Positions 7,320 to 40,565 of a stretch of DNA of 64,000 bases are shown here, piece by piece. The notes under the pieces are model-generated. The model was not told the origin of the DNA, did not search any database, and saw nothing but the letters and a program-made list of their open reading frames with translations. The stretch is from a virus: positions 1-64,000 of IMG/VR virus record IMGVR_UViG_3300010354_004913; one strand, given 5' to 3'. Numbering within the stretch: position 1 is the first letter of the stretch; each line of letters starts with the position of its first letter. A program made the translations under genes and the position numbers.

Positions 7320-8543
7320 TTAAGCAGACAGATATGATCTTAACCAACTAGCATATGTTTGACCATTATCTAATTTAGCAAGTTGATCATTAGTTGTTTG
7401 AGGCATTTTTTCTCGATCCTGTAAAATATAAGCCCACGACGACCGAGGGAAACAGTTGTTTCGACGATACAGTTCAATAGGAACATTTTTATAATGATTC
7501 CAATAGTCATTATCACGATGACTAAATTTGTAATGAGCTACTATGAAATCAACAGTTACATCAAATTCGTAATTAAGAGTACGATTATACATAACAGGAG
7601 TCAATCGTTCATGCATCAACAAATCTAATTTTTTTATGCTAAATGCTGTAAAATATAGTCCAGTGGCTTCTAAAGGCTCAATAAAGGCACTGCTTAAACC
7701 TATAGAAACTAGTTTTTTGTTTCCTAGATCTTTATAGTGATATCTATTACGACCTGTTACCATATTAACTTCTCTAACTTCAGGCCGGCCAAAACCTTCT
7801 TTTTCTAGGTAATCTAAAAATTCATTCTTAACATCAAATTTACCGTCATGTACATAGCCTATACCTATTTCGTCTCGCAATGGTATATTCCATATCCAGC
7901 CGTGATCCATGGCTCGTGATGTGGTGTAGGAAAATCTTTTATGTTCTGGAATAGTTGTTCTATAGACTAAAGCTTTGTTATTAGGCACAGATTTATCAAT
8001 TGATAGAAAATTATCTTCGTAGTATTTGTTTACAAAGGCTCGTTTAAATCCAGTACAGTCAATTAGCCAATCGCAGTCTACTTCGTCTACTGATTCTACA
8101 GTTCGTCTTTCTATAGTAAGATTGTCAAATCTTTCAAACCACTTGTCTAAAAATTTAGCAAGATTAGCCACACTAAAATGAAATGCTATATCATAAGATT
8201 CTATATTTTCTGGAATCTTATCGTTTTCCATCATATGTACTAGTTCAGGTGCTTCTGGACTATTCCCACCAAACGGATGAAAATAGTCATGCGGTAAAAA
8301 TCCTTCAAACTTTATACCCAGTTTTAAACTGCCACCTATTTCTTTTATGATATGATCAACAGTTATCCCGCACTCTCTAAAAAAATTTGTAACTTGAGGT
8401 ACTGTTCCTTCGCCTACTCCAATAGTAACATTGTTTTCAGGATATATCCATTTAATTTTATAATGAGGATATTTTGTACAAAAATATAAAGTAGACATAT
8501 ACCCTGAAGTACCAGCTCCAATAACAGCAATAGTTTTACTCAT
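7320..8543 (-). CDS. flavin-dependent (tryptophan halogenase-like) enzyme
   Basis: GAGTSG FAD motif, IGVGEGT, KLGIKF, GWIWNIPL (WxWxIP), FIEPLEATGL. Confidence 0.85.
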   Translation of the reverse strand: MSKTIAVIGAGTSGYMSTLYFCTKYPHYKIKWIYPENNVTIGVGEGTVPQVTNFFRECGITVDHIIKEIGGSLKLGIKFEGFLPHDYFHPFGGNSPEAPELVHMMENDKIPENIESYDIAFHFSVANLAKFLDKWFERFDNLTIERRTVESVDEVDCDWLIDCTGFKRAFVNKYYEDNFLSIDKSVPNNKALVYRTTIPEHKRFSYTTSRAMDHGWIWNIPLRDEIGIGYVHDGKFDVKNEFLDYLEKEGFGRPEVREVNMVTGRNRYHYKDLGNKKLVSIGLSSAFIEPLEATGLYFTAFSIKKLDLLMHERLTPVMYNRTLNYEFDVTVDFIVAHYKFSHRDNDYWNHYKNVPIELYRRNNCFPRSSWAYILQDREKMPQTTNDQLAKLDNGQTYASWLRSYLSA

Positions 8544-8778
8544 AATCTCTCCTTGCTTGTTTTATCATATCTTTATATTCATCATTTGGATGATTCACGA
8601 GATGAGAGTGATATATGTTAATAATTGTTTTAGGAGCAACTCCGTCGAATATAGTTGGTATAATTCCGTGAATAATACTTGTTATACCAGCATATATCAA
8701 TTTAAATCCTGCTAATACAGCCCAAATTAAATGTGAAAAATAGGTGCTTTTACTTTTGGTAAGATGCTCTTTAAACAT
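8536..8778 (-). CDS. DUF6356-like small membrane-associated protein
   Basis: HL......Y..H...A......AG....IH...P.IF pattern. Confidence 0.6.
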   Translation of the reverse strand: MFKEHLTKSKSTYFSHLIWAVLAGFKLIYAGITSIIHGIIPTIFDGVAPKTIINIYHSHLVNHPNDEYKDMIKQARRDYE

Positions 8779-10249
8779 GGTTTCTAAAATATTCTCTTAA
8801 TAGCTCGTTATCTAGCTTGATTCCTCGTAAAAATCTTTTTTTATTCAACACTGATATCTTCTTAATATTTACTTTATTAAAATTATTTTTAAAGAACAAG
8901 TTTAAATTATCTAGTACAACGTGATCTTCTTTTTCCCAGAATGCCAAATATAAGGAATTATTAAGGCTGTCAATTACAATGTATGAATCAGTATAATTTA
9001 AATTAAGATCATTGATAATTTTAATATCTAAAATTTCACCGTCTATTTTTGTTATATCACTTCTTCCTTTATGTACATAGTATTCTCCAACATGATCAAA
9101 TAGGTCATTAGTAACTATGTCAATATTATAAACTGGCAATCCAATTTTTATTAGTCCGCTATCAGAAATGTCAATATTGTAAAAGTTGTCAACTTTACTG
9201 AAAAATGATGAATTACGATCTAATGAATCTTTATCGATCGTTAATAAAAATACTGGACCACTAGTTTCATTTGAGCCAAATATACTAGTAATAGATTTAA
9301 AAATATTATTTCTTATAGCTTGTTTAGGTTTATCTTGAATATATGATAATGTTTGTACATTTAATTTAGGCCATGATAAATTATTTCTGGTGCTTGAATC
9401 TATAAATTCATCTATCATAAATGGATAAGGAAAAATTATATTTTCTAGTAATTCTCTATATTCTGAAATTGTATTAACAAACTGGTCAAAATTATTATAG
9501 TCATCTAGGTCATAAAATAAATGTTCTGTTACAGTATTGCTTGATAACGTTGGTAATAGGTATACTGCTAGACTACTTCCGTGATTTAAATTTCTAACAT
9601 GTAAACAACTTCCAGAAAATCTGTCAGCATTTCTTAGAGTAATTTTATATAAAAATTCATGCGAATGTTCTACAATTTTAGGTGTTCCTGTAGTACCACT
9701 ACTTGTACAACGCATAGCTATATCAGATGGTTCAGGAAAAATAGATTTAGCTTCTTCAAATTCTTTTTGATTTAAAATCCAAAAATTTAAATCAAGACTA
9801 CTGTAAGTTCTATTAGAACATTCTTTAAAAAATTTAAATTTGGTAAATGATTTTGATTTTGTATCTAATACAGTCTTTGGAAAATCATGTAAAAAAATGT
9901 CTATAGGCGATAGTATTTTTGTTTTTGGATCGAAATACTCTATATCTTCAAAGTCGTCATTGCGAGTATAATCTACTATGACAATTTTAAGACTTAATTC
10001 TAGTGCGGCAAAACAAGCAGCAAGATAATTGATATCTAAAACTTGCATGCCTATAAGTATCGATTCTCCTTTTTTAGCTTCACACTTGTATTTTAAAACA
10101 TATTTCCATAAATCGATCTTATGCGTTAAAAGTTTTTTATCAAAGTTTCTAATATTTTTAAAATCTAAAATACTGCGACGATTTTTTAATTTTAAATTAA
10201 CACCTTGAAAGGAATCATTTATTAAATGTCTTGAAATTATGTTCAACAT
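8771..10249 (-). CDS. ANL-superfamily adenylate-forming (AMP-binding) enzyme
   Basis: TSSGTTGTPK (A3), FGSNETSG (A5), TND, KGRSD..KIDG (A7/A8). Confidence 0.75.
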   Translation of the reverse strand: MLNIISRHLINDSFQGVNLKLKNRRSILDFKNIRNFDKKLLTHKIDLWKYVLKYKCEAKKGESILIGMQVLDINYLAACFAALELSLKIVIVDYTRNDDFEDIEYFDPKTKILSPIDIFLHDFPKTVLDTKSKSFTKFKFFKECSNRTYSSLDLNFWILNQKEFEEAKSIFPEPSDIAMRCTSSGTTGTPKIVEHSHEFLYKITLRNADRFSGSCLHVRNLNHGSSLAVYLLPTLSSNTVTEHLFYDLDDYNNFDQFVNTISEYRELLENIIFPYPFMIDEFIDSSTRNNLSWPKLNVQTLSYIQDKPKQAIRNNIFKSITSIFGSNETSGPVFLLTIDKDSLDRNSSFFSKVDNFYNIDISDSGLIKIGLPVYNIDIVTNDLFDHVGEYYVHKGRSDITKIDGEILDIKIINDLNLNYTDSYIVIDSLNNSLYLAFWEKEDHVVLDNLNLFFKNNFNKVNIKKISVLNKKRFLRGIKLDNELLREYFRNHV

Positions 10250-10260
10250 ACCAATACTTA

Positions 10261-11316
10261 TCAAAAATAATCTTCTAGATTTCCATCTCTTACAATATCT
10301 AACGTGGCACAGTGATAGCCACCGCTTAACGTTTGAGAATGCCGCATAGAAGTTGGAACAACTGTCATTTTATATTGTTCTAAAACTTTAATTAAATTTA
10401 CTTGATCTTTACCTACAATAACAGTGTTTTCATCTATACTGAGAATATTCATTCCAATATAAGGACTACAAGGACTTATACTTCCCGGCCCCGATTGTGT
10501 AATTGAATTTACATTTACATCTTTAAAATATATCTTATCCCAGCTCTCAAATAATTTTGGACAATTGGCAGGATTAACTCTCGTGCTGTTTAATAAGACT
10601 AGTCCCGGACGGAGAGGAATAATTGTACTGTCGAAATGTGCAAAACTGTAAACATGTTCAGCAGCATGTAATCTGTATCCTCTAGGTTCTAGCGTGTTCT
10701 TTAACCATTGAAATCCTAACCAATTACCTGTGTTAGAAATTTGAAAAAGGATATCTCTACCAAGCCTTATACAATTTGGTGCATCAAATATAGGTTCTAA
10801 GTTAGTTAAGCTAGGTTTAGACAAATCTTCAAATTGATATGAGTCGTCTAATAATCTAGGCTTAGGCGCAGCTATCCATTCGGTGCCATTTTTAACAGAT
10901 TCAATCATTATTTGATGATACGCTCTAGTTTCAAATAATCTGCTTCGACAGGGGCTAGGAGTCTCTATCATTAAATTGTTTAATGGAAGTAAAAGATCTC
11001 TAGGACACCATGTATACCATCCTGTTGATGTCCAATCTGGTGTGCTAAAAGTTTTACTATGATCTATAATTTCGGGTCTATGTACTTTAACGCCTGCTTT
11101 TATTAACACAGAGCAAAGTTCGTTAGCATCTTCGTTAGCTTCGTCAATCAGCCATTTTGGATACTGTCCCTCTATTTTTTTAACAGTAGCAATATCATAG
11201 TTTGTATAGCTCATACTCATAGTGCTTAAATCTACAGTAGGAACACGAGCATAATCAGCACGGCCAACAATAATTTCTTTTAAAGGATCCCAGTCGTTGT
11301 TTGAATTTATTCGCAT
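10261..11316 (-). CDS. amidinotransferase (glycine/inosamine-phosphate amidinotransferase family)
   Basis: N.WDPLKEIIVG, CPRD, FDA.N, HFDST, GGYHCATLD (Asp-His-Cys triad). Confidence 0.9.
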   Translation of the reverse strand: MRINSNNDWDPLKEIIVGRADYARVPTVDLSTMSMSYTNYDIATVKKIEGQYPKWLIDEANEDANELCSVLIKAGVKVHRPEIIDHSKTFSTPDWTSTGWYTWCPRDLLLPLNNLMIETPSPCRSRLFETRAYHQIMIESVKNGTEWIAAPKPRLLDDSYQFEDLSKPSLTNLEPIFDAPNCIRLGRDILFQISNTGNWLGFQWLKNTLEPRGYRLHAAEHVYSFAHFDSTIIPLRPGLVLLNSTRVNPANCPKLFESWDKIYFKDVNVNSITQSGPGSISPCSPYIGMNILSIDENTVIVGKDQVNLIKVLEQYKMTVVPTSMRHSQTLSGGYHCATLDIVRDGNLEDYF

Positions 11317-12236
11317 AATAGATGTTTAAGAATGTATTCTTTGTTAGGTATAGATGAATTGTTTATAGTTTCAACTACTTTATTCTTGTCTTTAACTTGA
11401 TTAATATCCAAATGTTTAGGATATGTTAAAACATTAGAAGTCCAAGTTAACGAATTACTTTTGATAAATTTTTCTAAATCAAATAATCCATGCCAGTTAT
11501 TTTTATGAATAACTGTATGAATTGTTAATTGATAATTTAACCTTTTTATTTGTTCAATGAAATTTAAAATATCTTCCCATTTGCTCCCAGATCTTACTTT
11601 TTCGTTAAGTTCTTTGTAACCGTCAATGCTTACAATAAATTTAACTTGTTTACACTCATTTAACAATTTTATTGTTTCGTCGTCCAATAAAAATGTACCA
11701 TTGGTATTATAAGTAACTTTGAGATTAGTTCGATCTGCTATTTTTAATATTCTTAAATGCCTAGTAGTCATCAAAGGTTCCCCACCTAAGAATAATACTT
11801 TATTGACAGACTTAGGAAGATCTATTATTTCTTTACTAGTTCTTACAACAATTTCAGAATTATTTTTCTTTGCCCAACTGCTGCTAAATTCATCCCAACA
11901 ACCGTCACAGGTTAAATTACAAATATTGTCCAATCCTACTTCTAAGAATTTAAGTTCAACTTGTTCACAATCGTATTCTTCATTAAATTGTTGACGTAGA
12001 CTTTTCTTTCCTAGACTTTCTTCATAATAGCATTTTTGACAATTAGGATTATGTATACCCTGTAAACTGTTATTTCTTAAATTTTCATACTCAGATGAGT
12101 CTAAAATGTCAACAACATTTTCTGTAAACTTTTTTACAGGAGTTTTATATCGACAACAGGCAAAGACATTATTATCGTTTCTTATATTAATGTGTTTCCA
12201 AAAAGCAGCGCACTTTGTTTCCATAAACTTATTCAT
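11307..12236 (-). CDS. radical SAM protein with N-terminal Cys-rich (twitch/SPASM-like) domain
   Basis: CNLTCDGC, GGEP, TNGT, SIDG; N-terminal C...W...CC...C..C. Confidence 0.85.
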   Translation of the reverse strand: MNKFMETKCAAFWKHINIRNDNNVFACCRYKTPVKKFTENVVDILDSSEYENLRNNSLQGIHNPNCQKCYYEESLGKKSLRQQFNEEYDCEQVELKFLEVGLDNICNLTCDGCWDEFSSSWAKKNNSEIVVRTSKEIIDLPKSVNKVLFLGGEPLMTTRHLRILKIADRTNLKVTYNTNGTFLLDDETIKLLNECKQVKFIVSIDGYKELNEKVRSGSKWEDILNFIEQIKRLNYQLTIHTVIHKNNWHGLFDLEKFIKSNSLTWTSNVLTYPKHLDINQVKDKNKVVETINNSSIPNKEYILKHLLCE

Positions 12237-12714
12237 ATACTGACACTAATAATGTCAGCTTAGGAATCATACCGATATTAGCTGATCCGTGATTATCTGA
12301 AAAATTATCAAAAATGAAAACGTCTCCTTTTTTATAATCTGTAATAAGTTTGTCATTTATGATAAAAACATGGCCAGAATGATAATCTTGCATAGGTATC
12401 CAATAAAATTTTCCTTTGGCACCTTCTGGATGAGGATCAATGTGCATGGGCATAAATTGTCCTTGAAGTAATCTAGCCACCCACCATCCAGTTTGTTTTG
12501 CTCCTTTCATAAATGGAAATTCTAAGTTGAAAGAAACATGATGCGGTTCTATCACAGCCCAGTTTGATCTTGAAAGATCGTAACCCGCATTTAATAGTCT
12601 ATTGTATTCAGAGCTTCCTTCACAAAAAGGTCTAGGCCATTCTTTAGGCAAGGACAAAACTTCATCGGTCCACTCGTCTTTTATATACGAATTAAAGTTC
12701 CCTAAGTATTTCAA
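12229..12714 (-). CDS. Fe(II)/2OG-type oxygenase (cupin/DSBH)
   Basis: PMHIDPH (HxD) ... HGSANIG (distal His). Confidence 0.7.
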   Translation of the reverse strand: MKYLGNFNSYIKDEWTDEVLSLPKEWPRPFCEGSSEYNRLLNAGYDLSRSNWAVIEPHHVSFNLEFPFMKGAKQTGWWVARLLQGQFMPMHIDPHPEGAKGKFYWIPMQDYHSGHVFIINDKLITDYKKGDVFIFDNFSDNHGSANIGMIPKLTLLVSVYE

Positions 12715-13642
12715 TGAACTTCCCTCCTTCTTTAAACTGTTTTTTCCTATTTACATCTAGCGTTACTTTTTGTCTAGGAGTGTCGTTGTTCGGACGTTTA
12801 TCAAACGCACATAACTTACATACTTCTATCGACTTGTCTAAATTGTTAACGAATTCCCTTACTTGATCAATTGGTAAAAAAGGATCGCATCCTTTGTATT
12901 TTTCTAATATTTCTTGTGCTTCTGTCTCGTACCTAACTTGTAATTTTGCATCTGGGTAGTTTGTAACTGGTGGACATTTATACAACAAGCCGTGCTGAAA
13001 AGTATAAACTGCTTTCCAACCACAGCTAGTATGACTAGCTTCTTGATCTCCTCCCATTTCAAAATATACTGTGCCGTTTTCAACCGTTTTATGATAGGGC
13101 AAATACATTTCTGTAATCTTCATAAATTTACAAACTTCTCTACCATCGATAAAGTACTGTATTGTTTTATTTGTTTCAAATTCTATACCAGGAGTTTCAA
13201 TAGAACTTACTCTAGTGCCCCACGGGGACAACGTATCTTCTATTTCTTTTTTAATTTCATCAAATGTTTCTTCTTCGTGACAGGACACTGTGACTCTAGC
13301 ATTTCCGTCTAAAAATACCTTTCTAGAAAAATCCATTTTTTTAGACATTCTAGTTCCATTAGTCATGACTTCTATGAAAACATTAGGCCAAATTTTTCTA
13401 ACTTCTTCGAACCATAAATCTAAATCAGGATTAAGATACGGTTCCCCGCCGCATAAAGATATTTCAGGTACATCAAGAATCTGTCCCCATTTAGCATATT
13501 TTTCCGCAGATTCGGCCCACCTACTATTGCCTTTAAAATCATACATGGCTAAACCGGCACAGTGACTACAGGTCATATTACATAGGTTATTAACCAGTAT
13601 AGATACAGGGTAAGTTAATTTTAGTTTATTCTTTAGTATCAT
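12692..13642 (-). CDS. radical SAM protein
   Basis: CNMTCSHC, GGEP, TNG, C-terminal LYKC...CKLC. Confidence 0.85.
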   Translation of the reverse strand: MILKNKLKLTYPVSILVNNLCNMTCSHCAGLAMYDFKGNSRWAESAEKYAKWGQILDVPEISLCGGEPYLNPDLDLWFEEVRKIWPNVFIEVMTNGTRMSKKMDFSRKVFLDGNARVTVSCHEEETFDEIKKEIEDTLSPWGTRVSSIETPGIEFETNKTIQYFIDGREVCKFMKITEMYLPYHKTVENGTVYFEMGGDQEASHTSCGWKAVYTFQHGLLYKCPPVTNYPDAKLQVRYETEAQEILEKYKGCDPFLPIDQVREFVNNLDKSIEVCKLCAFDKRPNNDTPRQKVTLDVNRKKQFKEGGKFIEILREL

Positions 13643-14685
13643 ATTTTGTTAATAATATCATATCTTATTAGATGATGAAATCCCTTTTGGTTAAACCATT
13701 TATCTATTTCTAATTTTTCTATACCGTACTCTTTAGACAAATTTTCTAAAATTTGAAAATTACGTTCAACAAGTTTGAAAAAATGTAAATAATTATAGTT
13801 TATATCATCGGTTATTTTTTCAATATTATTTTGATAATTTTCTAAAAAATGTTTTGTATTAAAAACTATAGCATCTAACCTGTCTTCTTCTGAAGACAAA
13901 TAGGCATAATCTTTTATTAGCATATATTCTTCAAATGTCTTAAATCCTAATTCTTTAATGTAATCAAACATTTGAGGATTAGATGCGTGTAAAAAAGGAT
14001 GTCGTTGTACAAATACTCTGTATGTTTTTTCTGTAAGATATTTATATGACAGATCTGAGTCGCTAATTCCTTCAGATATTATGCTTAATAGTGTGTTTTG
14101 ATAAACATTAGGATCTACCCAAGCAGTATCTTTGGTCCATTGGTTATCGGATGGTTCTGTACCATAATGTTTAGAATTTTCATAGACATCGTCAATTTGA
14201 CGACATAACTTTATAAGATCTTCATAATTATAAAATCTACTGCGACACCATTGTTCTTGTTCTTCTGTCCAAGGCTTGAAAAAAGTCCACTCAGCATTTT
14301 TTAGAAGATCTAATTTTTGATATCGATTTAATAATCCTATCCTGTTTGGTCTGTTAGGTACTCCTCCTAAAAATAAAAATTTTTGGGCATTGCTATTCCA
14401 GCAGTATGTTTGTTTATTTTTATAACTATTGTAAGTAGTATGAAGATTAAAATTAAATGGTACTACTTTTTTGTAATCTGTATTTTCTGAAGCTAGCCCG
14501 GCAACAATTGTTAGATCAACTTTACTAGCCAATGTTGAAATAACATCACCTGGCGTTTCATGTATAAATCCATCAGCTAACATTAAACCTAGAACTTTGT
14601 TACAATTGCCAATCTCTTTAATAAGAACATTGTATTTTTGTTCTTCAGGAATAAAAAAAGTTTCTAGGTTAACAATTTTATACAT
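13639..14685 (-). CDS. hypothetical protein, possibly glycosyltransferase-like
   Basis: LTEKTYR...HPF...GFKTF motif, which resembles GT-B-like phage proteins; context of NDP-sugar genes. Confidence 0.4.
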   Translation of the reverse strand: MYKIVNLETFFIPEEQKYNVLIKEIGNCNKVLGLMLADGFIHETPGDVISTLASKVDLTIVAGLASENTDYKKVVPFNFNLHTTYNSYKNKQTYCWNSNAQKFLFLGGVPNRPNRIGLLNRYQKLDLLKNAEWTFFKPWTEEQEQWCRSRFYNYEDLIKLCRQIDDVYENSKHYGTEPSDNQWTKDTAWVDPNVYQNTLLSIISEGISDSDLSYKYLTEKTYRVFVQRHPFLHASNPQMFDYIKELGFKTFEEYMLIKDYAYLSSEEDRLDAIVFNTKHFLENYQNNIEKITDDINYNYLHFFKLVERNFQILENLSKEYGIEKLEIDKWFNQKGFHHLIRYDIINKI

Positions 14686-17647: not shown

Positions 17648-17662
17648 TTTAATCTAAGTCCA

Positions 17663-17697: not shown

Positions 17698-17702
17698 TCT
17701 AT

Positions 17703-28950: not shown

Positions 28951-28955
28951 TTTTG

Positions 28956-31876: not shown

Positions 31877-32505
31877 AACGCTTTATTCTTATTCCTATCG
31901 TGTTGGCACTAGCCGCTTGCTCTACTACCAAACGAGGTGAAGGGGAGTTTGATCAAATTCGAAATCAAAAACTTAGTACAAGTTTCAAAAAAGATACTAT
32001 TCGAATTGAAACTGATTGTGCTTGGTATAAACCTTGGAAAAGCGACTGCGATATTGTTGCTATCGAAGTAACTGCTACCGCAGCCACTAACGGAAATTCT
32101 GAAAATAATCTACGCACAGCATTGACACGAGCTCAAATGACTGCGGTGGCCAATGTTCGTCACTTCATTCAAGAAGAAGTTAAAAGCGAACGAGTAAAAA
32201 CTACCATTGCGAAGAACGTAGAAAAGGCCAGCGATCGTATGAAGAGCCGAACTACTGTAGGCGAAGCTGTGACTATGAGTGACAGCGATGCTGAAAAGGA
32301 CACTAATTTTAGTGTTCGGGAAAACAGTAACGATACTGCCTATCAGCTCACCGAAACTATTCGCACCAATGCTCAAGGTATTATGCGAGGATTTAAAGTT
32401 GTAAAACAAGAAGTATCAGGACCTCAGCAGGTTTCCGTGACTATGCGTTGGGACAAAGACAGCGATCGAGCTGCTTCAGTTCTACGTAAAAAGTTCGGCG
32501 GTTAA
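31873..32505 (+). CDS. lipoprotein (LPP20-like)
   Basis: Lipobox LAA-C; A..RA...A..N...FI, G...V.......V.V pattern. Confidence 0.6.
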   Translation: MKRFILIPIVLALAACSTTKRGEGEFDQIRNQKLSTSFKKDTIRIETDCAWYKPWKSDCDIVAIEVTATAATNGNSENNLRTALTRAQMTAVANVRHFIQEEVKSERVKTTIAKNVEKASDRMKSRTTVGEAVTMSDSDAEKDTNFSVRENSNDTAYQLTETIRTNAQGIMRGFKVVKQEVSGPQQVSVTMRWDKDSDRAASVLRKKFGG

Positions 32506-32506
32506 A

Positions 32507-33439
32507 ATGTTTTGGAGCCTTGCCTTCTGTATTCTTCTTCAAACTTGTATTCCGCCCCCGGCTCCAATTCGTGTAGTTGGCGTCGGGGACTCTGCTGAAC
32601 AAGCTAGGGATGCTGCCTATAGAGAAGCTATGGAAACCTATATGGGTTCTGTTGTAGTCAGTGACAAGGAAATGCGAGATTATCAATTAGTCAAAGACTC
32701 TGTTATGGTCTATAGCAGTGCCTATGTAGACAAAATGAGAGTGATTAGTGAGACTAAACAGGGAAACAAATTTCGAATAGAAATGGACATTTGGATAAGT
32801 TCTAGCAAGATAGCTAACAGAATTTTAACAATCTATCCTAAAGATCAGAACATCGATAGTGCTAGGATCAGCGAACAGTTTAGAACTTATGCTAGTTCAA
32901 AGCAAAAAGGTGATAAACTATTAGAAAATGTACTAGAAATTTTTCCTTCAAATGCCTTTTACATTTCTAATTTACCTATTGAATTTAAAATTGATACGTC
33001 AAGAGTACCTTATCTAAGAATTCCTTATACAGTAAATTGGAATAAGAATTATTTTATAGCGTTAGAAGAAACTGTAAAAGTAATTAGTGACGGAAAGGCT
33101 GCTAAAAACAATCCGGCCGCATCTGTAGTATTTGGCAGTGGTAGTTCTTGGTTTTTACAGCCTTACTTTTTCAACGATGTTGTTGCTGTTAGGATGATGT
33201 ACAGCAAGTTTGAAGATAAAAAACCTGCAGTTCGACTTAATGTAGTAAACGGAAATAGTGTTGTATATACCACTTGCCAAAAACTCAATACTAGTTTTCA
33301 TAGTTCCGGATACGGCACAATAGATTTGCTTGGTAATAAAGTTTATCAAGGAGAATTTAATATTCGTTTACCTGCTAACTTGCCTGCTAACGTTAAAACT
33401 CAACTTTCTATCGAAACTGAAAATAACTGCGCTGTTTGA
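32507..33439 (+). CDS. exported protein with LPP20/FlgT-N-like N-terminal domain
   Basis: Hydrophobic N-terminus; G.G.S.EQA..AA.REA.E...GSVV.S. Confidence 0.5.
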   Translation: MFWSLAFCILLQTCIPPPAPIRVVGVGDSAEQARDAAYREAMETYMGSVVVSDKEMRDYQLVKDSVMVYSSAYVDKMRVISETKQGNKFRIEMDIWISSSKIANRILTIYPKDQNIDSARISEQFRTYASSKQKGDKLLENVLEIFPSNAFYISNLPIEFKIDTSRVPYLRIPYTVNWNKNYFIALEETVKVISDGKAAKNNPAASVVFGSGSSWFLQPYFFNDVVAVRMMYSKFEDKKPAVRLNVVNGNSVVYTTCQKLNTSFHSSGYGTIDLLGNKVYQGEFNIRLPANLPANVKTQLSIETENNCAV

Positions 33440-33449
33440 TAAGTACTTC

Positions 33450-34331
33450 ATGTTTAAAGTAACCAGCCGATGGGGACATCAATCTAGTATCAAAATAGAA
33501 TGGAACCTTGGAAAGCGGTGTAATTACAACTGTTCTTATTGCCCTAGTTCCATCCACGATAATACCAGCTCCCATACTCCCATTAATACACTATTGTCAG
33601 TAATTGATAAACTGGCAAACTTAAATAAACCTATACGAATTAGCTTCACTGGGGGAGAACCCTGCGTACATCCAGAGTTCGATACATTACTACGATATGC
33701 TAAACACAAAGATATTCAGTGGATTAGTGTAACTACAAACGGAACTCGGCCGCCAGAATACTATCATTCTTTAACAGTTGATCAAATTGTATTCAGTATT
33801 CATTTTGAATACGATTGGAAGCGTGTAGTTAATACAATTATGGAAACAGCTACGCACAAGAATGTCATAGGCCAAATTATGGCTCATCATGATTACATGG
33901 ATGACGTAAAGATTGTTAGAGATGTATTAAATCACGACGGTGTTCCTAACACAGTAAGACGTATAAGATGGACTGAAGGAGATCACGATCTTTTCGATGA
34001 TCTAAGATATCATCCTGATGACCTAAACTGGATTAAAGACCAAGAATCAACAGTTAAGGGTAACTGTATTATCGACGATGATCAAATTATTCATAGTAAT
34101 GATGTTATTAAACTTCATCTTAATCAATATAAAGACTGGCATTGTTATGCCGGTTTAGAAAGTTTGATGATTAATTGGGATGGAGAAGTACATCGTGCTA
34201 CATGTCGAGTAGGCGGCAGTCTTGGTAACATTTACCAAGGCACATTTATAATGCCCACCGAACCTATTATTTGTACTAGAAATTGGTGTACTTGCTCGGC
34301 AGATATTCCTATAACTAAACATTCCATTTAG
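33450..34331 (+). CDS. radical SAM protein with C-terminal SPASM/twitch-like domain
   Basis: CNYNCSYC, TGGEP, TTNG, W.CYAG...C...C...CTC; TAAGTA at 33440 precedes the ATG. Confidence 0.85.
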   Translation: MFKVTSRWGHQSSIKIEWNLGKRCNYNCSYCPSSIHDNTSSHTPINTLLSVIDKLANLNKPIRISFTGGEPCVHPEFDTLLRYAKHKDIQWISVTTNGTRPPEYYHSLTVDQIVFSIHFEYDWKRVVNTIMETATHKNVIGQIMAHHDYMDDVKIVRDVLNHDGVPNTVRRIRWTEGDHDLFDDLRYHPDDLNWIKDQESTVKGNCIIDDDQIIHSNDVIKLHLNQYKDWHCYAGLESLMINWDGEVHRATCRVGGSLGNIYQGTFIMPTEPIICTRNWCTCSADIPITKHSI

Positions 34332-35298
34332 TTATGTGTGTATCGGGTTGGCAACTACAATGATATAATTTACAAACTATAGACTCTGGTTGGATATTAG
34401 TATCAAAGTTTTCATCACATACATTTAATATCTTGCCTCCAAACGGATCTTGTCTACAAGACGCTGCTAACACCCGGCCGGAAGGATCTATACTTATACT
34501 CTCAAATCCAGCATTACAGGTCCAGCCTTGAAATTTATTCCAGCCATTGGTCAGTATTGAATGTGGTCGTGCGGCAACTGCTGAATTATTATCAAACAGT
34601 ACAACACTTTCGTGAATTTTCATATCATTTAATCTTTTAAATATCCAATCACTGTTTGGTATTCTTTTTATACTGTCATTAACATATTGAAACTGTTCAG
34701 GAGTGTAAACATCCATACCGTGACCAGGGGCGTCAATGATTTCTTTTGTTTGTATAAACCACGAATGTTTACTGGCTTTCATTAGATCGATGTAGCTAAC
34801 ACACTTATCCCAGTGTTTAGCATCCATTAACATCAATGCTGTGACTTTTAAACCTGATTCAAATAATAAGTCTGCTACATTAATATAGTGATGTATATCT
34901 ACAAATTCATGATGGCAACTAAGAACTACATCATCAAAGCATTTGTAATGTTCTTCCCACCATCTCATTGTCCTTGAACCGTTAGTAGTTAATGAAATAT
35001 AACAATCGTGTGTTTTTTTAATTTCTTCGCAGAATTTTTCTAGGCCTGGCCATACTGTAGGTTCGCCACCGCCTGTTATCATAACATGAAATTTTTCTTT
35101 TTTAGCAATCTTTTTATACGTGTCAAATAAAATTCTAAAATTTTTAATAATTAAATCAGTATTTTTTGGGTATCGATATCGTTCAATATGAGATCCAGGA
35201 AAACAATATGTACAATTAAAATTACAAACATCTGTGGGGAAAAAAGAAACCCTCAAATATTCTGGTTCTTGTGTAGAAATGACTTTGATAGGTATCAT
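34315..35298 (-). CDS. radical SAM protein with C-terminal SPASM/twitch-like domain
   Basis: CNFNCTYC, GGGEP, TTNG, W.CNAG...C...C...CSC. Confidence 0.85.
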   Translation of the reverse strand: MIPIKVISTQEPEYLRVSFFPTDVCNFNCTYCFPGSHIERYRYPKNTDLIIKNFRILFDTYKKIAKKEKFHVMITGGGEPTVWPGLEKFCEEIKKTHDCYISLTTNGSRTMRWWEEHYKCFDDVVLSCHHEFVDIHHYINVADLLFESGLKVTALMLMDAKHWDKCVSYIDLMKASKHSWFIQTKEIIDAPGHGMDVYTPEQFQYVNDSIKRIPNSDWIFKRLNDMKIHESVVLFDNNSAVAARPHSILTNGWNKFQGWTCNAGFESISIDPSGRVLAASCRQDPFGGKILNVCDENFDTNIQPESIVCKLYHCSCQPDTHITKWNV

Positions 35299-36713
35299 GA
35301 TAAATGGGATAATTCTGGAAATATTTCTTTAAAATTTAGCTTACGTTCAACATCCATGATATTTATATACTCTTTAAACGCTGATAAAAGGTGAGTATGA
35401 TCTTCACTGTCCATAAAATCTAATACTGCTTGCCAGCGTTTCCATCCGTAGGGATTTTCTTTCCAATAGTCGGCATCTTGTCTATAGTTTGTATGTAGCC
35501 ATGTGGCAAGTTCTCCAAACAACTTACGCACTTCTTCTTTGTCTTTCTGCGGAAGACATCTTATACTTAAGAAAGTAGGAATATACAATAGATGCATATT
35601 AAAAATACCGCCACCGGCTTGTATACCACCTGTTACATTTTCAAAGTTAATTTTCTTAAAATTTTGTTTTATCTTCCAGCGAGCAAAATCTGGTAAATGT
35701 TTGATGTTTAATATCTGTATTGCGGTAGCAATACTAACTTGTATGTTGCTTGGAGTGTTATCTAACCTATGTAAATTCTTTTCTATAGTAGTCCAGTCAC
35801 TAGGGTAACGAATATAATAATTTCTTAAATCAGTAGCATCTATACTAAATCCTACTTTTACTTTTTTAAATTTAGTCCATAGATCAATAATTTCTTCGTC
35901 GAGCAATAAGCCATTAGTATTATATCTAACAAGTATTTTATCAGCATAACCTTGACGGATAATTTCTTCTAAGAACCATTTATGTTCTCTTATCATTAGC
36001 GGTTCACCACCTGCAAAATATACCTGTTTTAAATTAGGAATCTGAGCATACATTTCTTTCCAGAAGTCTGGATTTTCATGCCAAAAATTATTAAATGTTT
36101 CCCGATCCCATTGCATTTGTTCTTTTAATTCTTTAGACTGATATAATGGGTACATTTTTTTATGATCTGCTACCCATTGGCTACTGTCATGCGGAGAGCA
36201 CATTACACATTTAAGATTACAAGTATGTCCTAATCGTAGATCTAGATATACTAATTTTTCTGGTATAGATCCGTCTTCATTAGTTTGTGATATCAATTCT
36301 GGAATGTCGATACCTTCTTCCATCCAAGATCCAGTTTCCCAAACACGTTTACTAGCAACACCATTACTTTCTTCTTGAAAACATTTAGAACAACTATTAG
36401 GAATATTTCCTTCTAACATGATCTTTCTTACAGATTTCATGTAATCGTTGTTCCAGGCACTCATAGGAGTTTCTCTACCAAAGTTAGCCGGTATACCGTT
36501 CTCATTTTTAACTAGACCAACTGTATGGTCATTGCCAGCTCCACTAGCATTTGCAGAACAACAAAGGCGCATATCTCCGTTTGGTCTAGTAGCAAAATGT
36601 ATCCAGGGAAGAACACAAAATGTTTTACTACCGCTGGCATTTGCTATTTTATTCTGCCAAAGTCCTAACTTTGTAGTCTCAGACTGCATCCAATAAACTT
36701 CAGTTTCATCCAT
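35295..36713 (-). CDS. radical SAM protein with N-terminal twitch/SPASM-like domain
   Basis: FCVLPW...LCC...C..C, CNLKCVMC, AGGEP, NTNG. Confidence 0.85.
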   Translation of the reverse strand: MDETEVYWMQSETTKLGLWQNKIANASGSKTFCVLPWIHFATRPNGDMRLCCSANASGAGNDHTVGLVKNENGIPANFGRETPMSAWNNDYMKSVRKIMLEGNIPNSCSKCFQEESNGVASKRVWETGSWMEEGIDIPELISQTNEDGSIPEKLVYLDLRLGHTCNLKCVMCSPHDSSQWVADHKKMYPLYQSKELKEQMQWDRETFNNFWHENPDFWKEMYAQIPNLKQVYFAGGEPLMIREHKWFLEEIIRQGYADKILVRYNTNGLLLDEEIIDLWTKFKKVKVGFSIDATDLRNYYIRYPSDWTTIEKNLHRLDNTPSNIQVSIATAIQILNIKHLPDFARWKIKQNFKKINFENVTGGIQAGGGIFNMHLLYIPTFLSIRCLPQKDKEEVRKLFGELATWLHTNYRQDADYWKENPYGWKRWQAVLDFMDSEDHTHLLSAFKEYINIMDVERKLNFKEIFPELSHLS

Positions 36714-37725
36714 TACAATTTTTCACACATGTCCACGGTTTTAATTTTTGTAGATTTATATCTAATTGATCCCATACTACTTCGTCTATTTTTATATCAT
36801 TAAGATTAGGAACACCTAAGTTATGAAACTTAGACCGTGTATCTTTAACTACCAAATTTCTAAGTTTTTGTATTGGCAGTGTTTCTACAATCGGCTGTTC
36901 TATCCAATCAGATCCTACCCAACAACAAGGAAATACATTCCCTCTACTATCTACATAAATTTCGTTTTTTTCAATACACTTAGGCTTAATAGTTGATTGT
37001 TCGACTATGTCTTCCCATATAGAAATATCTTTACTTATTTTTTCTAGAGGCAAGAATTCTATAACAGATTCTTGAATAGCAGGTTCTAAATAATATTCTA
37101 TATTTCCAGATTTATCTTCTACTGGAAATTCTTCCATGTCATAAAATCGTCTAGTATATTTAAAATTAATTTTATTAAATCCTAGGTCTAGCATCTGTTT
37201 TTTAAACTCATCAACTTCGTGTTGATTATGCTTAAAAATTAAACAATCTATTTCTGCATTTCCACCAGCATTAATAAACGATACTGCGTTCTCGATTATT
37301 TTTTTCCAACTTGTTCCTCTTCTATACAAGACATGGCTTGATTCAAAGCCATCAATTCCAAAAGTACAGGTATGACTTTTTCCTAATGCCCTAGCTAGAT
37401 CTTTCCACCATGTTACATCTCTAGCACTGCCGTTTGTATGAATTCCAAGATGGCAATCGCTATTTACGGTTCTTATATACTCGTAAATTTCTAAGCAATC
37501 TTTTGCTATAATTGGATCACCATAGTTACCGCAAGCATAGAAATTTCTCAAATTTTTTAAAAACTCAATTGAAAACCATTTTTTAAAAATATCTAAAGTA
37601 ACATCATACTGTCCTACAAAATTGCGCTCCTTGCCTCCATTGACATTTCGAGCACACATAGGACAACTAGCCTGACATTTGTCAGTTAGTTCTATATGTA
37701 AGTTTGTTACTTTATTTGGATACAT
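36706..37725 (-). CDS. radical SAM/SPASM protein
   Basis: CQASCPMC, GNYGDP, HTNG, C-terminal C...G.VFPCC...C..NC. Confidence 0.85.
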   Translation of the reverse strand: MYPNKVTNLHIELTDKCQASCPMCARNVNGGKERNFVGQYDVTLDIFKKWFSIEFLKNLRNFYACGNYGDPIIAKDCLEIYEYIRTVNSDCHLGIHTNGSARDVTWWKDLARALGKSHTCTFGIDGFESSHVLYRRGTSWKKIIENAVSFINAGGNAEIDCLIFKHNQHEVDEFKKQMLDLGFNKINFKYTRRFYDMEEFPVEDKSGNIEYYLEPAIQESVIEFLPLEKISKDISIWEDIVEQSTIKPKCIEKNEIYVDSRGNVFPCCWVGSDWIEQPIVETLPIQKLRNLVVKDTRSKFHNLGVPNLNDIKIDEVVWDQLDINLQKLKPWTCVKNCNG

Positions 37726-38238
37726 TTATTTTAACATTCTTTCAATTTCTAAAACAATTTTTTTAGAAAGAGGAGTCACATCAAAATTAAAAGTAAGAAC
37801 TTCTGTAGCAGATTTACTTACAAGATACTTATGAAAGTTCCATCTAGGAACATCTCTTGTAGTTTCTCCCAATAATTTGTAGAAACTATTTACTTCATTG
37901 ACAGATTCACTATTGAACACACCCGGTGCTGAACAACTATTAGGAACAACATGAGACTTTTCAAAAACAGGAAAACTAATTCCATATTCACTTTCACAGA
38001 AATCTTGAATTTTATTATTAGAATCAAATTCTTGATTGGCAAAGTCACCACTAGGAAAACCTAATACAACAAACCCTTTATCTTTATAGGTATTATATAA
38101 TTCTTCTAACGCTTCGTATTGTGGTGTAAGCCCGCAATGACTGGCAGTGTTAACAACCAAAATAACTTTGTCACTGTATTTTGATAAGTGTACACGTTCA
38201 TTGTTCAATAATGTAAATTCATGGTTGTAAAAATTCAT
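37726..38238 (-). CDS. glutathione peroxidase (Cys type)
   Basis: VVNTASHCG.TPQY, LGFPS..F..QE, PRWNFHKYL. Confidence 0.9.
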   Translation of the reverse strand: MNFYNHEFTLLNNERVHLSKYSDKVILVVNTASHCGLTPQYEALEELYNTYKDKGFVVLGFPSGDFANQEFDSNNKIQDFCESEYGISFPVFEKSHVVPNSCSAPGVFNSESVNEVNSFYKLLGETTRDVPRWNFHKYLVSKSATEVLTFNFDVTPLSKKIVLEIERMLK

Positions 38239-38257: not shown

Positions 38258-38848
38258 TTATTTTTTTCCTATAATCATATACCTATTATATAAAGGTAAC
38301 TGTAATTCTCCGCTCCACATCACATTTATATGCGATTGCTGTGTAAATTCATCTAAGCTATTTGCTATTCTTACATGCTCTTCTATATTATAATTATTAC
38401 TTTGAAGAACAATTAAACTGTGTTCTGGTACCTTACTAAGCCATACTTCATAATCTTGTTGTACTATGTGTTCACAACTAGTATTAATAACAACATCGCT
38501 AGAACACTTATAATCAATCATGTTACTTGTTATTGCTTGAAACTTGTTTTGATTATGTTCCATTTTATTCATTTCAATTGCTATCGATTCGCAACTAGGA
38601 TCGATGTCTATACTTGTTATTTTTACAATAGGTAAGTTACTCTGAAATAATAAACTAGATAGTGTACCTACCCAGCCTCCGTGTATTTCCACAGTGCTAG
38701 GATTATTAACAAAAGGTTTTATATTGTTTATAAGCCATAACTTACTGTTAATTTGACCTTTCCAAAATGCATCTAATGTTCGAATTGGGTCTTGGCTATT
38801 TCTAATAGCACACATCCAATGATGTAAATGATCTAGATCTATATTCAT
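38258..38848 (-). CDS. class I SAM-dependent methyltransferase-like protein
   Basis: GGWVG motif I, SIDID, INTSCEH. Confidence 0.65.
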   Translation of the reverse strand: MNIDLDHLHHWMCAIRNSQDPIRTLDAFWKGQINSKLWLINNIKPFVNNPSTVEIHGGWVGTLSSLLFQSNLPIVKITSIDIDPSCESIAIEMNKMEHNQNKFQAITSNMIDYKCSSDVVINTSCEHIVQQDYEVWLSKVPEHSLIVLQSNNYNIEEHVRIANSLDEFTQQSHINVMWSGELQLPLYNRYMIIGKK

Positions 38849-39600
38849 AAATTTAATTTTTCTGCTATTCTTTCTGCAGTTAGTTTTAATGTTTTACAAC
38901 CATAATGGCTGTCATCTCTAGCTCTGTCAACTGTCTTTAGTCTATCACACCCTAACAATTTAGCAGTATCACTAAAAAAACTTGCTTCATAGTATCTAGT
39001 GTTTTCCCATAACTGTTTACTAGATAAGCTGGCAAATAACGCATGGGTCATTCCATGATGTTCACTTTTTGACCAAAGGTCCATGTAATTATTTTCTTCC
39101 ATGTTCCATGATCCATAACTTTTTAGAGAATTTCTATAGTAATAAACTGTTCTAGAATAATCTGTCCATAAATGAACTACTGCAAGGGGCATAGGATAGT
39201 TAGCTTTTAAAATAATTGAATTATGAAAAGAGTATGTTATAGATGATCCACCTACCCCCATGTTGATAACTGGTCTATTAGTTATACTTTCTAAGTAGGT
39301 GCTTATGGTCTCACTGTCGTCAACTCCAACCCCAAACACATTTGAACATCCGAATATAACTATAGATTTATTCCAATCAATTTCGTTAAAATTTCTTGTT
39401 CGATAACAGTCTTTATTGTAGGTGTATCTAACAGGTGCGCTTCTATACTTCCAGTTTTCGGGCTTTGTTTTAAGATTTTTTTGAAATAATTCTTCTGTAT
39501 CTGTTCCTGAAAATAAAGAATTGACTTCAGAATCAACAGGTAAAAATTTTCCCTGTTTAATTAATTTAGGTATAGTTTTAAATATTAAAAAGTTTTGCAT
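38845..39600 (-). CDS. SGNH/GDSL-like protein
   Basis: FGCS..FG.G, INMGVGG.S, C-terminal D..H.G. Confidence 0.55.
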   Translation of the reverse strand: MQNFLIFKTIPKLIKQGKFLPVDSEVNSLFSGTDTEELFQKNLKTKPENWKYRSAPVRYTYNKDCYRTRNFNEIDWNKSIVIFGCSNVFGVGVDDSETISTYLESITNRPVINMGVGGSSITYSFHNSIILKANYPMPLAVVHLWTDYSRTVYYYRNSLKSYGSWNMEENNYMDLWSKSEHHGMTHALFASLSSKQLWENTRYYEASFFSDTAKLLGCDRLKTVDRARDDSHYGCKTLKLTAERIAEKLNL

Positions 39601-40565
39601 TTTGGTATTTTACTATCAGCACTGCTAACACAGCTAGGAGTTATACAACTTACAGGACCACTGAATAAATTAAAATTTTCTAGATTTCCTAAGGGTGCGT
39701 CGTGGCAACTGTAACTACGTTTTACTTCGTCTCCGCGAATAATCACACTTTGATAACCACTGTTACACATCCAACCTTTAAATTTGTTAAATCCAAACGC
39801 ATTAAATCTTTCTGCTTGATCAAAAAGATACTCTCTACCTTGCTTATCATACATAGCGATTTGATAAATTTCTTCCCCATTAGCTTCTTGCGGAAATCCT
39901 GTTCGCATAATTTCGATCATTTCATCCGTATAACCATCAACTACATAACTAGCAGTAGGATCGCTTTGAGGTTTTAATGTTACATTAATACCGTGTCTAT
40001 TCAATCGTTGGCATCTTTCATAATATTCCCAAAATCTTTCCGGAACCATTACTTGATTTACTGTAACATACACACTATTATACTGAAGTCTATGAATTTT
40101 TTCTATAAAATCTTTTTCTTTAGCATGTTCTGCATGAAAACTAGCTGTGATACTTTTACGAGCAAACATGGCTACCGCGGTTGCCCAACTACGCCACCAT
40201 GTTTCGCCAGGGCTAAGATTAGTAGTCATGTGTACACTTTGATAAGGAGTTTCAATGCCATCATCCAAGTGCCTCATTAAATCTAGTAATCCTCGATAGG
40301 CTGTAGGTTCGCCCCCACTAAAACTCCAATGAAATTGATTAAATCCATTGGCTCTGGCCTGCGTTTTGATCCTATCAACTACAGTTTTATACACTTCGAT
40401 TGTTCTATGATCGGGGGTATCAGATCTAGCATAGGGCCAACAATAACTACACTTGTAATTACAAAAACGCCCGAGTATCCAACTAATGGAAAACAACGGG
40501 CGGTCTAACATTGTACGTTGTCCAAACCGAACAACCTTTTCAAAGGGTATTTCTGTAAATTTCAT
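39585..40565 (-). CDS. radical SAM protein with C-terminal SPASM/twitch-like domain
   Basis: CNYKCSYC, SGGEP, TTN, W.CNSG...SC...C...C; TAAATA at 40571-40576 (minus) upstream. Confidence 0.85.
   Translation of the reverse strand: MKFTEIPFEKVVRFGQRTMLDRPLFSISWILGRFCNYKCSYCWPYARSDTPDHRTIEVYKTVVDRIKTQARANGFNQFHWSFSGGEPTAYRGLLDLMRHLDDGIETPYQSVHMTTNLSPGETWWRSWATAVAMFARKSITASFHAEHAKEKDFIEKIHRLQYNSVYVTVNQVMVPERFWEYYERCQRLNRHGINVTLKPQSDPTASYVVDGYTDEMIEIMRTGFPQEANGEEIYQIAMYDKQGREYLFDQAERFNAFGFNKFKGWMCNSGYQSVIIRGDEVKRSYSCHDAPLGNLENFNLFSGPVSCITPSCVSSADSKIPKCKTF

Follow-up and report, generated by a model that had tools for sequence, protein, structure and literature searches.

T4-like cyanophages carry lipopolysaccharide and sugar islands, and glycosylation genes are likewise found in chloroviruses and mimiviruses. 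To our knowledge, none of the glycan islands of large viruses combines six to ten radical S-adenosylmethionine (rSAM) enzymes with eight to ten Fe(II)/2-oxoglutarate (Fe/2OG) oxygenases. Among cultured phages, the T4-related Campylobacter phages CP220 and CPt10 possess 11-12 rSAM genes of unknown function, and five rSAM genes belong to an exchangeable module in CP220, CPt10, and CP21 (PMC2853527). Paired rSAM enzymes are also used by the HXS antiphage system (HxsA-D; PMC13128918), and an Fe/2OG beta-hydroxylase, Cpz10 (PDB 7v4f), belongs to the caprazamycin biosynthesis pathway (PMC9814697). Here, we describe a 33-kb island of tailoring enzymes (positions 7320-40565) in the IMG/VR record IMGVR_UViG_3300010354_004913. 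The stretch of DNA analysed, hereafter designated as the window, covers positions 1-64,000 of one viral contig, which is 91,225 bp long, has 36% GC, and lacks a terminal repeat. The island is real, conserved, and uncharacterised; it is assembled from known enzyme families and is classed here as a putative virus-encoded sugar-type tailoring island. The reading that we favour, with a probability of roughly 0.45, is that of a cytoplasmic pathway making and transferring a heavily tailored amino/guanidino sugar or cyclitol.

The island comprises 41 contiguous open reading frames (ORFs) in a virtually gapless arrangement, in agreement with the approximately 40 contiguous enzyme-like genes claimed in an earlier note made from the sequence of this stretch. 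Nearly all encode soluble modifying enzymes, the non-enzymes being two lipoproteins (31873 and 32507; genes are designated by their first coordinate, and signs after coordinates give the strand) and a small membrane protein (8536), which has the sole plausible transmembrane segment of the island. Neither nonribosomal peptide synthetase or polyketide synthase domains nor DNA-metabolism genes were found inside, as had been stated. Both boundary signals previously recognised are also present. On the left, a bidirectional intrinsic terminator (7276-7301), made of an 11-bp stem with a T run on either strand, ends both the tail-fibre gene and the leftmost island gene. On the right, a consensus sigma70 promoter (40589-40617, +; TTGACA-17-TATAAT, 12/12 matches) drives the right-flank gene at 40624. 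The island is indeed richer in AT than its surroundings, with 32.4% GC as compared with 40.3% in the left flank and 38.6% in the right flank, and the same tendency was observed for the module described below in all 11 relatives measurable for both module and flank (mean difference 3.5%). The presence of T4-type late promoters in the island was considered and found no support. The late motif TATAAATA was found upstream of none of the 41 island genes, and TAAATA upstream of four, as compared with 4 of 20 flank genes; far from being enriched, both motifs are depleted by a factor of 3-4 relative to mononucleotide shuffles of the island, despite its 32% GC.

The carrier is an uncultured jumbo phage resembling PA5oct and Atu_ph07, of which the contig represents about 25% of the genome (CheckV completeness 25%, implying a genome of ca. 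350 kb). Genes downstream of the island specify a clamp loader along with baseplate and fibre proteins of the T4 type; the clamp loader is closest to those of the PA5oct group of Pseudomonas jumbo phages (54.6% identity), with Atu_ph07 and XacN1 next. When 48 kb of the window was compared with INPHARED phages by megablast, no match was obtained, so that no cultured phage matches this DNA. In environmental sequences, relatives of gene 35295 occur in at least 292 IMG/VR contigs with 66-85% identity. Eighty of these loci were kept, and gene presence was scored by best-hit mapping. The 39585 gene alone has 4901 metagenome homologues, some of them on contigs of up to 387 kb.

Based on gene distribution over these 80 loci, the island, which had been treated as one unit, can be divided into a widely conserved module of about 21 kb (ca. 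19.5-40.6 kb) and a variable, contig-specific left arm (7.3-19.5 kb). Within 19513-40565, homologues were detected in 34-76 of the 80 loci for thirteen core genes and in fewer loci for the others, and this gene set recurs in relatives with a shuffled order. Most genes of 7320-19512 have homologues in at most 11 loci. The halogenase, the DUF6356 protein, and the adenylating enzyme of the left edge have none, and the halogenase and adenylating enzyme thus fall outside the conserved system. The proposed linkage to tail fibres is not conserved, as similarity to the fibre of this contig was found within 10 kb in a single locus of the 80. Fibres diverge fast, which weakens this adjacency test.

The CxxxCxxC motif is intact in each of the ten rSAM genes that had been counted. 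Nine of them exceed the PF04055 gathering threshold (29.5 bits); the tenth, 36706, scores 28.2 bits, 1.3 below this cut-off, and its NCBIfam hits support its rSAM identity. Four are N-terminal-twitch enzymes of the NF033640 (N_Twi_rSAM) family, in which the auxiliary-cluster domain is N-terminal to the rSAM core, and SPASM was placed ahead of Radical_SAM by Pfam in three of them. Against a curated cut-off of 170 bits (whole-protein score), the short paralogue 11307 (11307-12236, -; PF04055 6.5e-16; SPASM-like segment at residues 9-70) reached 179 bits, 21474 (21474-22619, +) 193 bits, the conserved 29530 (29530-30876, +; orthologues in 60 loci, median identity 74%) 313 bits, and 35295 (35295-36713, -) 396 bits, each of the other six rSAMs having 43 bits or less. 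NF033640 has a name only and no known reaction. Five genes, here called type B, share a C-terminal Cys cluster and lie outside every named family: 12692 (12692-13642, -; PF04055 3.7e-11), which is a paralogue of 23288 and 34315, 23288 (23288-24265, +; 8.9e-10), the conserved 33330 (33330-34331, +; 2.1e-13; orthologues in 65 loci) and 34315 (34315-35298, -; 1.3e-12; orthologues in 55 loci), and 39585 (39585-40565, -; 4.1e-11), the last gene of the island. The third type, likewise without a named family, is 36706 (36706-37725, -), with a CQASCPMC motif and orthologues in 73 phage and 54 bacterial loci; together with 35295 and 39585, it forms the core triad. The true starts of ORFs 29530 and 33330 are probably near 29620 and 33450, where they had been placed at first reading.

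The earlier note knew of no characterised pathway for an rSAM expansion on such a scale; phages CP220 and CPt10 already have 11-12 such genes, also of unknown function (PMC2853527). Together with CP21, they gave the only cultured-phage hits for 39585 and were among the few for 36706, with 21-24% identity. They belong to a different phage lineage with a different host, and a shared set of oxygenase, amidinotransferase, and glycosyltransferase (GT) genes is not demonstrated. Likeness to the HXS system is limited to 23288 and 12692, which are weakly similar to HxsC (34 and 25 bits) and miss the HxsB and HxsC cut-offs (at least 268 bits) by far. An HXS-type substrate was also considered for the island and rejected, as regular-expression searches of the 91-kb contig and 145 loci for proteins with CHxS (x2) or HxS (x3) repeats or an RGRR tail gave no credible candidate, and the HxS-repeat effector is therefore absent from this set.

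The second enzyme class consists of putative Fe/2OG oxygenases of the double-stranded beta-helix (DSBH) fold. Eight of the ten previously claimed are supported, and two (25845 and 20611) are possible only. The Cpz10-like beta-hydroxylase 28279 (28279-28932, -) matched 7v4f with a family profile (E 1.7e-16), about 100 residues being aligned, and H78, D80, H122, and R132 are invariant in its family. The HxD...H...R signature is thus shared with Cpz10, but no other caprazamycin genes occur in the island. According to hhalign (84%, E 7e-6), the 28279 family is related to a family of small paralogues with an invariant HxD...H motif. This paralogue family includes 12229 (12229-12714, -), which is 47% identical to 19513, 17159 (17159-17647, -; Asp_Arg_Hydrox E 5e-4), 19513 (19513-20007, -), with which the conserved module begins and whose orthologues in relatives are 56-57% identical, and the conserved pair 26492 and 27034 (26492-27037 and 27034-27612, -), with orthologues in 47 and 34 loci and a P-x-H-x-D...H motif that is invariant across 44 sequences. 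The other supported members are a prolyl-4-hydroxylase-type enzyme, 20004 (20004-20606, -; PF13640, 2OG-FeII_Oxy_3, 1e-12; orthologues in 24 loci), and an Asp/Asn-beta-hydroxylase-type enzyme, 17703 (17703-18455, +; PF05118, Asp_Arg_Hydrox, 9.3e-8). The conserved 20611 (20611-21471, -) is a possible oxygenase based on invariant H193, D195, H252, and R265 (HxD...H); its family gave no PDB match, no profile hit, and no significant hhalign match to DSBH profiles. The possible oxygenase 25845 (25845-26498, -; Asp_Arg_Hydrox E 0.011) is contig-specific, with no orthologue in the 80 loci, and its hhalign matches to DSBH profiles were not significant.

Enzymes typical of sugar chemistry are grouped in the left arm. 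The best resolved is an amidinotransferase of the StrB1 (inosamine-phosphate) type, 10261 (10261-11316, -). The assignment as an amidinotransferase had been made before, and phmmer now aligned the protein end to end with 1bwd (3.3e-90; residues 4-350 to 5-346), including the C-terminal catalytic-Cys motif GGYHC. Matches to AGAT, SxtG, and HsvA were clearly weaker (ca. 1e-60), and Pfam returned nothing. A PLP (pyridoxal phosphate) enzyme of fold-type-I-like structure, probably an aminotransferase, is encoded by 14678 (14678-15556, -); its family scores are low (Aminotran_1_2 E 0.0015; 3if2 E 0.0034), and the earlier call is upheld by D160, A162, and the SxSK motif (S185-x-x-K188), which are kept in phage and Bdellovibrionota homologues. 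Next to it are a nucleoside diphosphate (NDP)-sugar epimerase/dehydratase of the extended short-chain dehydrogenase/reductase (SDR) type (15553-16452, -; PF01370 2.3e-34; GDP_Man_Dehyd 9e-19) and a UDP-glucose/GDP-mannose dehydrogenase-like protein (Ugd; 16425-17162, -), with a UDPG_MGDP_dh central domain (8e-15) and a partial N domain. Both had been named correctly, the Ugd being a short form of 245 aa devoid of the usual C-terminal domain and having orthologues of ca. 250 aa in five phage loci. The streptidine branch of streptomycin biosynthesis, to which StrB1 belongs, also includes aminotransferase, dehydrogenase, and kinase steps, and PLP, dehydrogenase-type, and kinase-fold proteins are encoded near 10261; in contrast, neither an inositol-phosphate synthase nor other Str genes were identified in the island, which is phage-borne and has its genes in common with Bdellovibrionota rather than actinomycetes.

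At the left edge, a flavin-dependent halogenase (7320-8543, -) was recovered as claimed (PF04820 1.7e-59, 202 bits for a cut-off of 21). It is of the Trp type, with GAGTSG (GxGxxG) and GWIWNIP (WxWxIP) motifs and 2436 metagenome homologues. The gene of the DUF6356 small membrane protein (8536-8778, -; PF19883 5.8e-12) separates it from an ANL-type adenylating enzyme (8771-10264, -), for which the earlier assignment stands on a marginal AMP-binding score (31.3 bits for a cut-off of 29.9) and a perfect TSSGTTGTPK motif, a PDB sequence search giving no hit.

Structure prediction brought two formerly unannotated proteins, 13639 and 18421, among glycosyltransferase-fold candidates. The family of 13639 (13639-14685, -; 972 homologue clusters) had no Pfam or PDB sequence match. 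A model built from a 72-sequence alignment (pLDDT 93.8) was searched, independently of Foldseek, against 48,161 chains, and the top 50 structural matches were all GT-B glycosyltransferases (Z 8.4-10.9), aligned over 219-273 residues (159 for one single-domain chain) with 2-13% identity. T4 alpha- and beta-glucosyltransferase ranked first (Z 10.9 and 10.7), tied with many other GT-B enzymes, and the structural relatives include, as a lead only, phage proteins fused to NDP-sugar epimerase domains. Having the GT-B fold with its two Rossmann domains, the modelled 13639 protein is a candidate glycosyltransferase, a designation that speaks for the fold only. The model of 18421 (18421-19512, +; pLDDT 85.2) combines a predicted GT-A-fold N-domain with a class-I methyltransferase-like C-domain. 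Residues 1-215 matched LH3 294-539 (Z 10.5), PBCV-1 A64R (Z 10.4), and Mimivirus R699 (Z 9.8), nucleotidyltransferases being nearly as good (Z 8.6-9.5), and residues 216-363 matched NodS (Z 9.1). The protein encoded in the window may be a decayed copy, as its C-terminus is 40-100 aa shorter than in orthologues (405-467 aa) and the orthologue consensus SPDTEF reads SPGTEF, with the loss of one acidic residue. Gene 18421 is adjacent to the oxygenase gene 17703, and this pair recurs in relatives (e.g., locus L080); a 17703-like domain also occurs within bacterial proteins of 761-808 aa. The resemblance of the predicted GT-A domain to PBCV-1 A64R and Mimivirus R699 extends to a more general likeness with the glycan islands of large viruses, in which soluble NDP-sugar enzymes and GT-fold proteins are similarly encoded in an AT-rich accessory region.

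A bacterial counterpart was identified by scanning one genome per GTDB species for the 39585 family. The 63 loci recovered were nearly all from Bdellovibrionota, including complete chromosomes and one isolate, and 61 Bdellovibrionota-type loci displayed ca. 50% identity to 39585. The triad 39585/36706/35295 co-occurs in these chromosomes with 36-52% identity (47-50% for 35295), in loci interleaved with GT2 glycosyltransferases and having as neighbours a 38258-type gene (30 loci), a 14678-type PLP gene (16 loci), and a NodU-type carbamoyltransferase. In a Bdellovibrio metagenome-assembled genome (MAG; locus L131), an amidinotransferase (41% identity), Ugd-like, epimerase, PLP, and 28279-like genes are added, with a weak 13639-like match (29% over 58 aa). 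The cultured Bdellovibrio sp. HCB2-146 has a rSAM locus of ca. 36 kb on contig NZ_JBLEQP010000001.1 (C1:1858482-1894914) containing six of the eight NF033640 members of the genome and four rSAM-type matches under that cut-off; 5 of the 11 GT2 matches of the genome are clustered in its final 9 kb. This locus is a bacterial analogue of the phage island that is open to genetics. No Wzx flippase was found near the Bdellovibrio rSAM loci. The 39585 type is accessory in Bdellovibrionota, since it was detected in only 9 of 201 sampled genomes, and NF033640 was above cut-off in none of 14 model genomes. Whether the genes map to a known bacterial pathway had been raised as a point against a dedicated phage system; this applies in part, since core genes, and in L131 the amino/guanidino-sugar genes as well, co-occur in Bdellovibrionota, but the bacterial pathway is itself uncharacterised.

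In a FastTree phylogeny rooted on paralogues, phage sequences formed a single clade (support 100) inside a Bdellovibrionota grade. This nesting is suggestive only, given a backbone support of 86-89 and a risk of long-branch effects. Eight MAG contigs with a 39585 homologue (L085, L094, L105, L118, L128, L135, L139, and L145) were placed in one clade beside Bacteriovoracaceae. Their labels cover seven taxa in five phyla (Gammaproteobacteria, Verrucomicrobiales, Chloroflexota, Acidimicrobiaceae, Flavobacteriales, Rickettsiales, and Crocinitomicaceae), and they are probably mis-binned viral or Bdellovibrionota contigs. A further 6-kb contig labelled Crocinitomicaceae (L083) sits inside the phage clade.

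The earlier note had proposed a system that builds and installs complex modifications, namely decorated glycans or protein modifications, on virion surfaces or possibly on DNA or host-surface molecules. Its idea of a dedicated, uncharacterised multi-enzyme system stands, and a decorated sugar is the best-supported chemistry because of the NDP-sugar enzymes, the StrB1-type amidinotransferase, the predicted GT-B and GT-A folds, and the GT2-rich bacterial counterpart. The solubility predicted for the island enzymes is also consistent with cytoplasmic NDP-sugar chemistry. In the pathway that we propose, the short Ugd-like enzyme and the epimerase/dehydratase would prepare a nucleotide sugar, the PLP enzyme would aminate a keto intermediate, and the StrB1-type amidinotransferase would convert the amine to a guanidino group. 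The rSAM enzymes, twitch and other, might then carry out O2-independent radical steps on the scaffold, such as dehydrogenation, epimerisation, deoxygenation, or C-C or C-methyl chemistry; radical reactions of this kind on amino-sugars and cyclitols are known from BtrN and DesII. Hydroxylation of the scaffold would fall to the eight to ten Fe/2OG oxygenases, tailoring could be completed by the methyltransferase-like, kinase-like, PP-loop, SDR-like, and SGNH-like proteins, and the soluble GT-B (13639) and GT-A-like (18421) candidates would transfer the finished moiety to an acceptor. A further acyl or halogenated decoration may be added, for this contig alone, by the left-edge halogenase and ANL enzyme. 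Enzyme inventory and conservation are observed; the reaction sequence, the substrate, and the acceptor are deduced from enzyme families. The product could be placed on a virion protein, on a host-envelope precursor, or on a small aglycone. As undecaprenyl phosphate machinery was found neither in the window nor in the bacterial locus, the acceptor is more likely to be a small aglycone, a protein of the cytoplasm, or an intermediate of host origin, either nucleotide-linked or lipid.

Several points weigh against this pathway, whose entire route is read from enzyme families. The conserved module (19.5-40.6 kb) by itself has no clear sugar-nucleotide enzyme; these enzymes sit in the variable arm and have orthologues in few relatives. 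SPASM/twitch rSAMs, oxygenases of the prolyl-4-hydroxylase and Asp/Asn-hydroxylase types, and Bud32-like kinases more often modify proteins or peptides. The structural matches of the 13639 and 18421 models establish the fold only, the GT-A fold being common to sugar nucleotidyltransferases, and 18421 has a G in the window in place of the D of the SPDTEF motif of its orthologues. Finally, no Pfam hit to a priming transferase, flippase, or polymerase was found among window ORFs (ABC exporters were not searched), and the bacterial rSAM locus has no Wzx.

The alternative that survives best, although we consider it unlikely, is a small molecule that would not be bound to a macromolecule and would resemble antibiotics such as aminoglycosides, aminocyclitols, or nucleosides, made during infection against the host, competitors, or rival phages. 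Among solved structures, the nearest relatives of the best-resolved enzymes come from antibiotic biosynthesis, namely StrB1 (streptomycin; 3.3e-90) and Cpz10 (caprazamycin; 1.7e-16). Aminocyclitols are substrates of twitch rSAMs such as BtrN, and all the island enzymes are soluble. The patchy occurrence in Bdellovibrionota (9 of 201 genomes) resembles that of accessory biosynthetic gene clusters, and an ANL enzyme and a flavin halogenase are present at the island edge. These last two are, however, outside the conserved system, as they occur in none of the 80 related loci; the window has no recognisable exporter, resistance, or regulatory gene, and the GT2-rich bacterial loci suggest instead the assembly of an oligosaccharide or glycoconjugate.

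Post-translational maturation of a phage (virion) or host protein or peptide is a weaker alternative, and one that we hold to be rather improbable. It could be of the type seen in ribosomally synthesized and post-translationally modified peptides (RiPPs) or mediated by anaerobic sulfatase-maturating enzymes, or consist of collagen-type hydroxylation followed by glycosylation. The NCBIfam similarity of the rSAMs is generic and mostly to peptide maturases, although far under cut-offs in all cases. Prolyl-4-hydroxylase-type and Asp/Asn-hydroxylase-type oxygenases and a Bud32-like kinase fold are present, the DSBH/GT-A-fold pair 17703 and 18421 resembles domains of LH3 and Mimivirus R699, the 17703-like domain lies within large bacterial proteins, and the island follows a tail-fibre gene in this contig. 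A substrate is nevertheless difficult to find. Small ORFs were clustered across the window and the 80 phage loci (10 kb on either side of each locus), and none was conserved within the module or next to it; the conserved clusters that include the window are those of an IF-1 gene and an AbrB-like gene, which lie in the right flank. Repeat proteins of the HXS type gave no credible candidate (see above), collagen-like GXY runs are absent from all fibres and large structural proteins, and no protease, RiPP recognition element, or leader-recognition domain was seen. Fibre adjacency, moreover, is found in 1 of 80 loci, and a StrB1-type amidinotransferase and NDP-sugar enzymes are ill-suited to a pure peptide pathway.

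Hypermodification of phage DNA to evade host restriction, by a glycosylated or amino-acylated base or a 7-deazaguanine derivative, is very improbable: the QueC-like PP-loop protein, PTPS/QueD at 54297 (14 kb to the right), the T4 glucosyltransferases heading the 13639 matches in a tie with many GT-B enzymes, and the rSAM, PLP, and kinase enzymes of known thymidine hypermodification pathways would fit, but the QueC cut-off is not reached, the island has no dNMP hydroxymethylase or thymidylate-synthase-like gene, TGT/DpdA (PF01702) was not found in the contig and four relatives of 145-217 kb (all fragments and thus not decisive), and the same core lies among GT2 genes in Bdellovibrionota chromosomes.

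Returning to the sugar or cyclitol pathway, literature searches found no published description of the module. A bolder version of this reading, which we put forward as a doubtful but tangible prospect, is that a very abundant lineage of uncultured jumbo phages and some Bdellovibrionota use at least six rSAMs and several Fe/2OG oxygenases to remodel, step after step, one sugar or cyclitol scaffold into a class of guanidino-, hydroxy-, or methyl-decorated glycosides without described counterpart, either attached to the virion or released as an antibiotic-like effector. Among multi-enzyme gene sets of environmental jumbo phages that are still uncharacterised, the module is one of the most widespread, and six to ten rSAMs in a single viral pathway imply chemistry that has not been shown for any phage system. 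A product displayed on virions or host surfaces would matter for how hosts are recognised and how they resist phages in lakes and seas, and a free metabolite would amount to a natural product encoded by a phage. The cultured carrier Bdellovibrio sp. HCB2-146 makes the finding testable.

The remaining genes of the module have been assigned with less certainty. For the SDR pair, the two kinase-fold proteins, and the PP-loop, methyltransferase, and SGNH proteins previously named, support comes from weak hits or motifs. The small Bud32-like kinase-fold protein 27605 (27605-28282, -) has orthologues in 50 loci and a paralogue in 22609 (22609-23298, +), their joint profile matching Bud32 (8unk) with an E of 5.6e-4. 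Genes 24786-25379 and 25372-25848 (both -) encode short SDR-like paralogues that share 36% identity and display a TGxxxGIG/LG motif and a weak match to the Epimerase N-terminus. The QueC-like PP-loop ATPase 28920 (28920-29636, +), with orthologues in 51 phage and 8 bacterial loci, is characterised by an SGGADS motif and a C-terminal CGKCFWC; its match to the C-terminal part of QueC (E 0.021, 14.8 bits) is below the 22-bit cut-off. The methyltransferase-like 38258 (38258-38848, -) travels with the rSAM triad and is found in 74 phage and 30 bacterial loci; HGGWVG and DID motifs are invariant in its family, which has no Pfam family and no PDB match. The SGNH-hydrolase-like designation of 38845 (38845-39600, -; orthologues in 13 loci) is drawn from its GCSN and DDSH motifs alone, no family hit being obtained.

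Pfam searches at E up to 5 on ten residual ORFs gave hints only. The conserved protein 24198 (24198-24812, +; orthologues in 21 loci) showed no significant family match, and the GNAT label formerly given to it was not confirmed. No family was found, even at relaxed E in Pfam, for 30860 (30860-31684, +), which has hits in ten loci, including four clear orthologues (41-58%). Two lipoprotein-like genes that are not enzymes (31873-33439, +) were inserted in the module and occur in 2 of 80 loci; 31873 has a signal peptide and lipobox (LALAAC), and 32507 a weak FlgT_N match. A glutathione peroxidase (37726-38238, -; PF00255 7.8e-30; 2 loci) is an accessory insert between rSAM genes that may protect Fe-S enzymes or remove peroxide from uncoupled oxygenases.

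Outside the island, the left flank (1-5051) resembles an RNA-repair and translation-rescue set. It encodes the C-terminus of an RtcB-like protein (phrog_850), two phosphatases/phosphoesterases, an RF-1-domain (ArfB-like) protein, a P-loop kinase resembling polynucleotide kinase, and a GH113-like protein. In the right flank (41214-42020 and 48857-55984) are found a fatty-acid desaturase, an ATP-dependent DNA ligase, a Bax1-I membrane protein, a PGDYG protein, PTPS/QueD, and a UvdE UV endonuclease. A small AbrB/SpoVT-like gene is paired with a gene resembling that of translation initiation factor IF-1 (41998-42418), and 14-16 loci have kept this pair on the right side of the module. Further downstream, one ORF of 2500 aa (57026-64000, extending to 64528 in the contig) precedes fibre/baseplate-like genes of 480-1182 aa.

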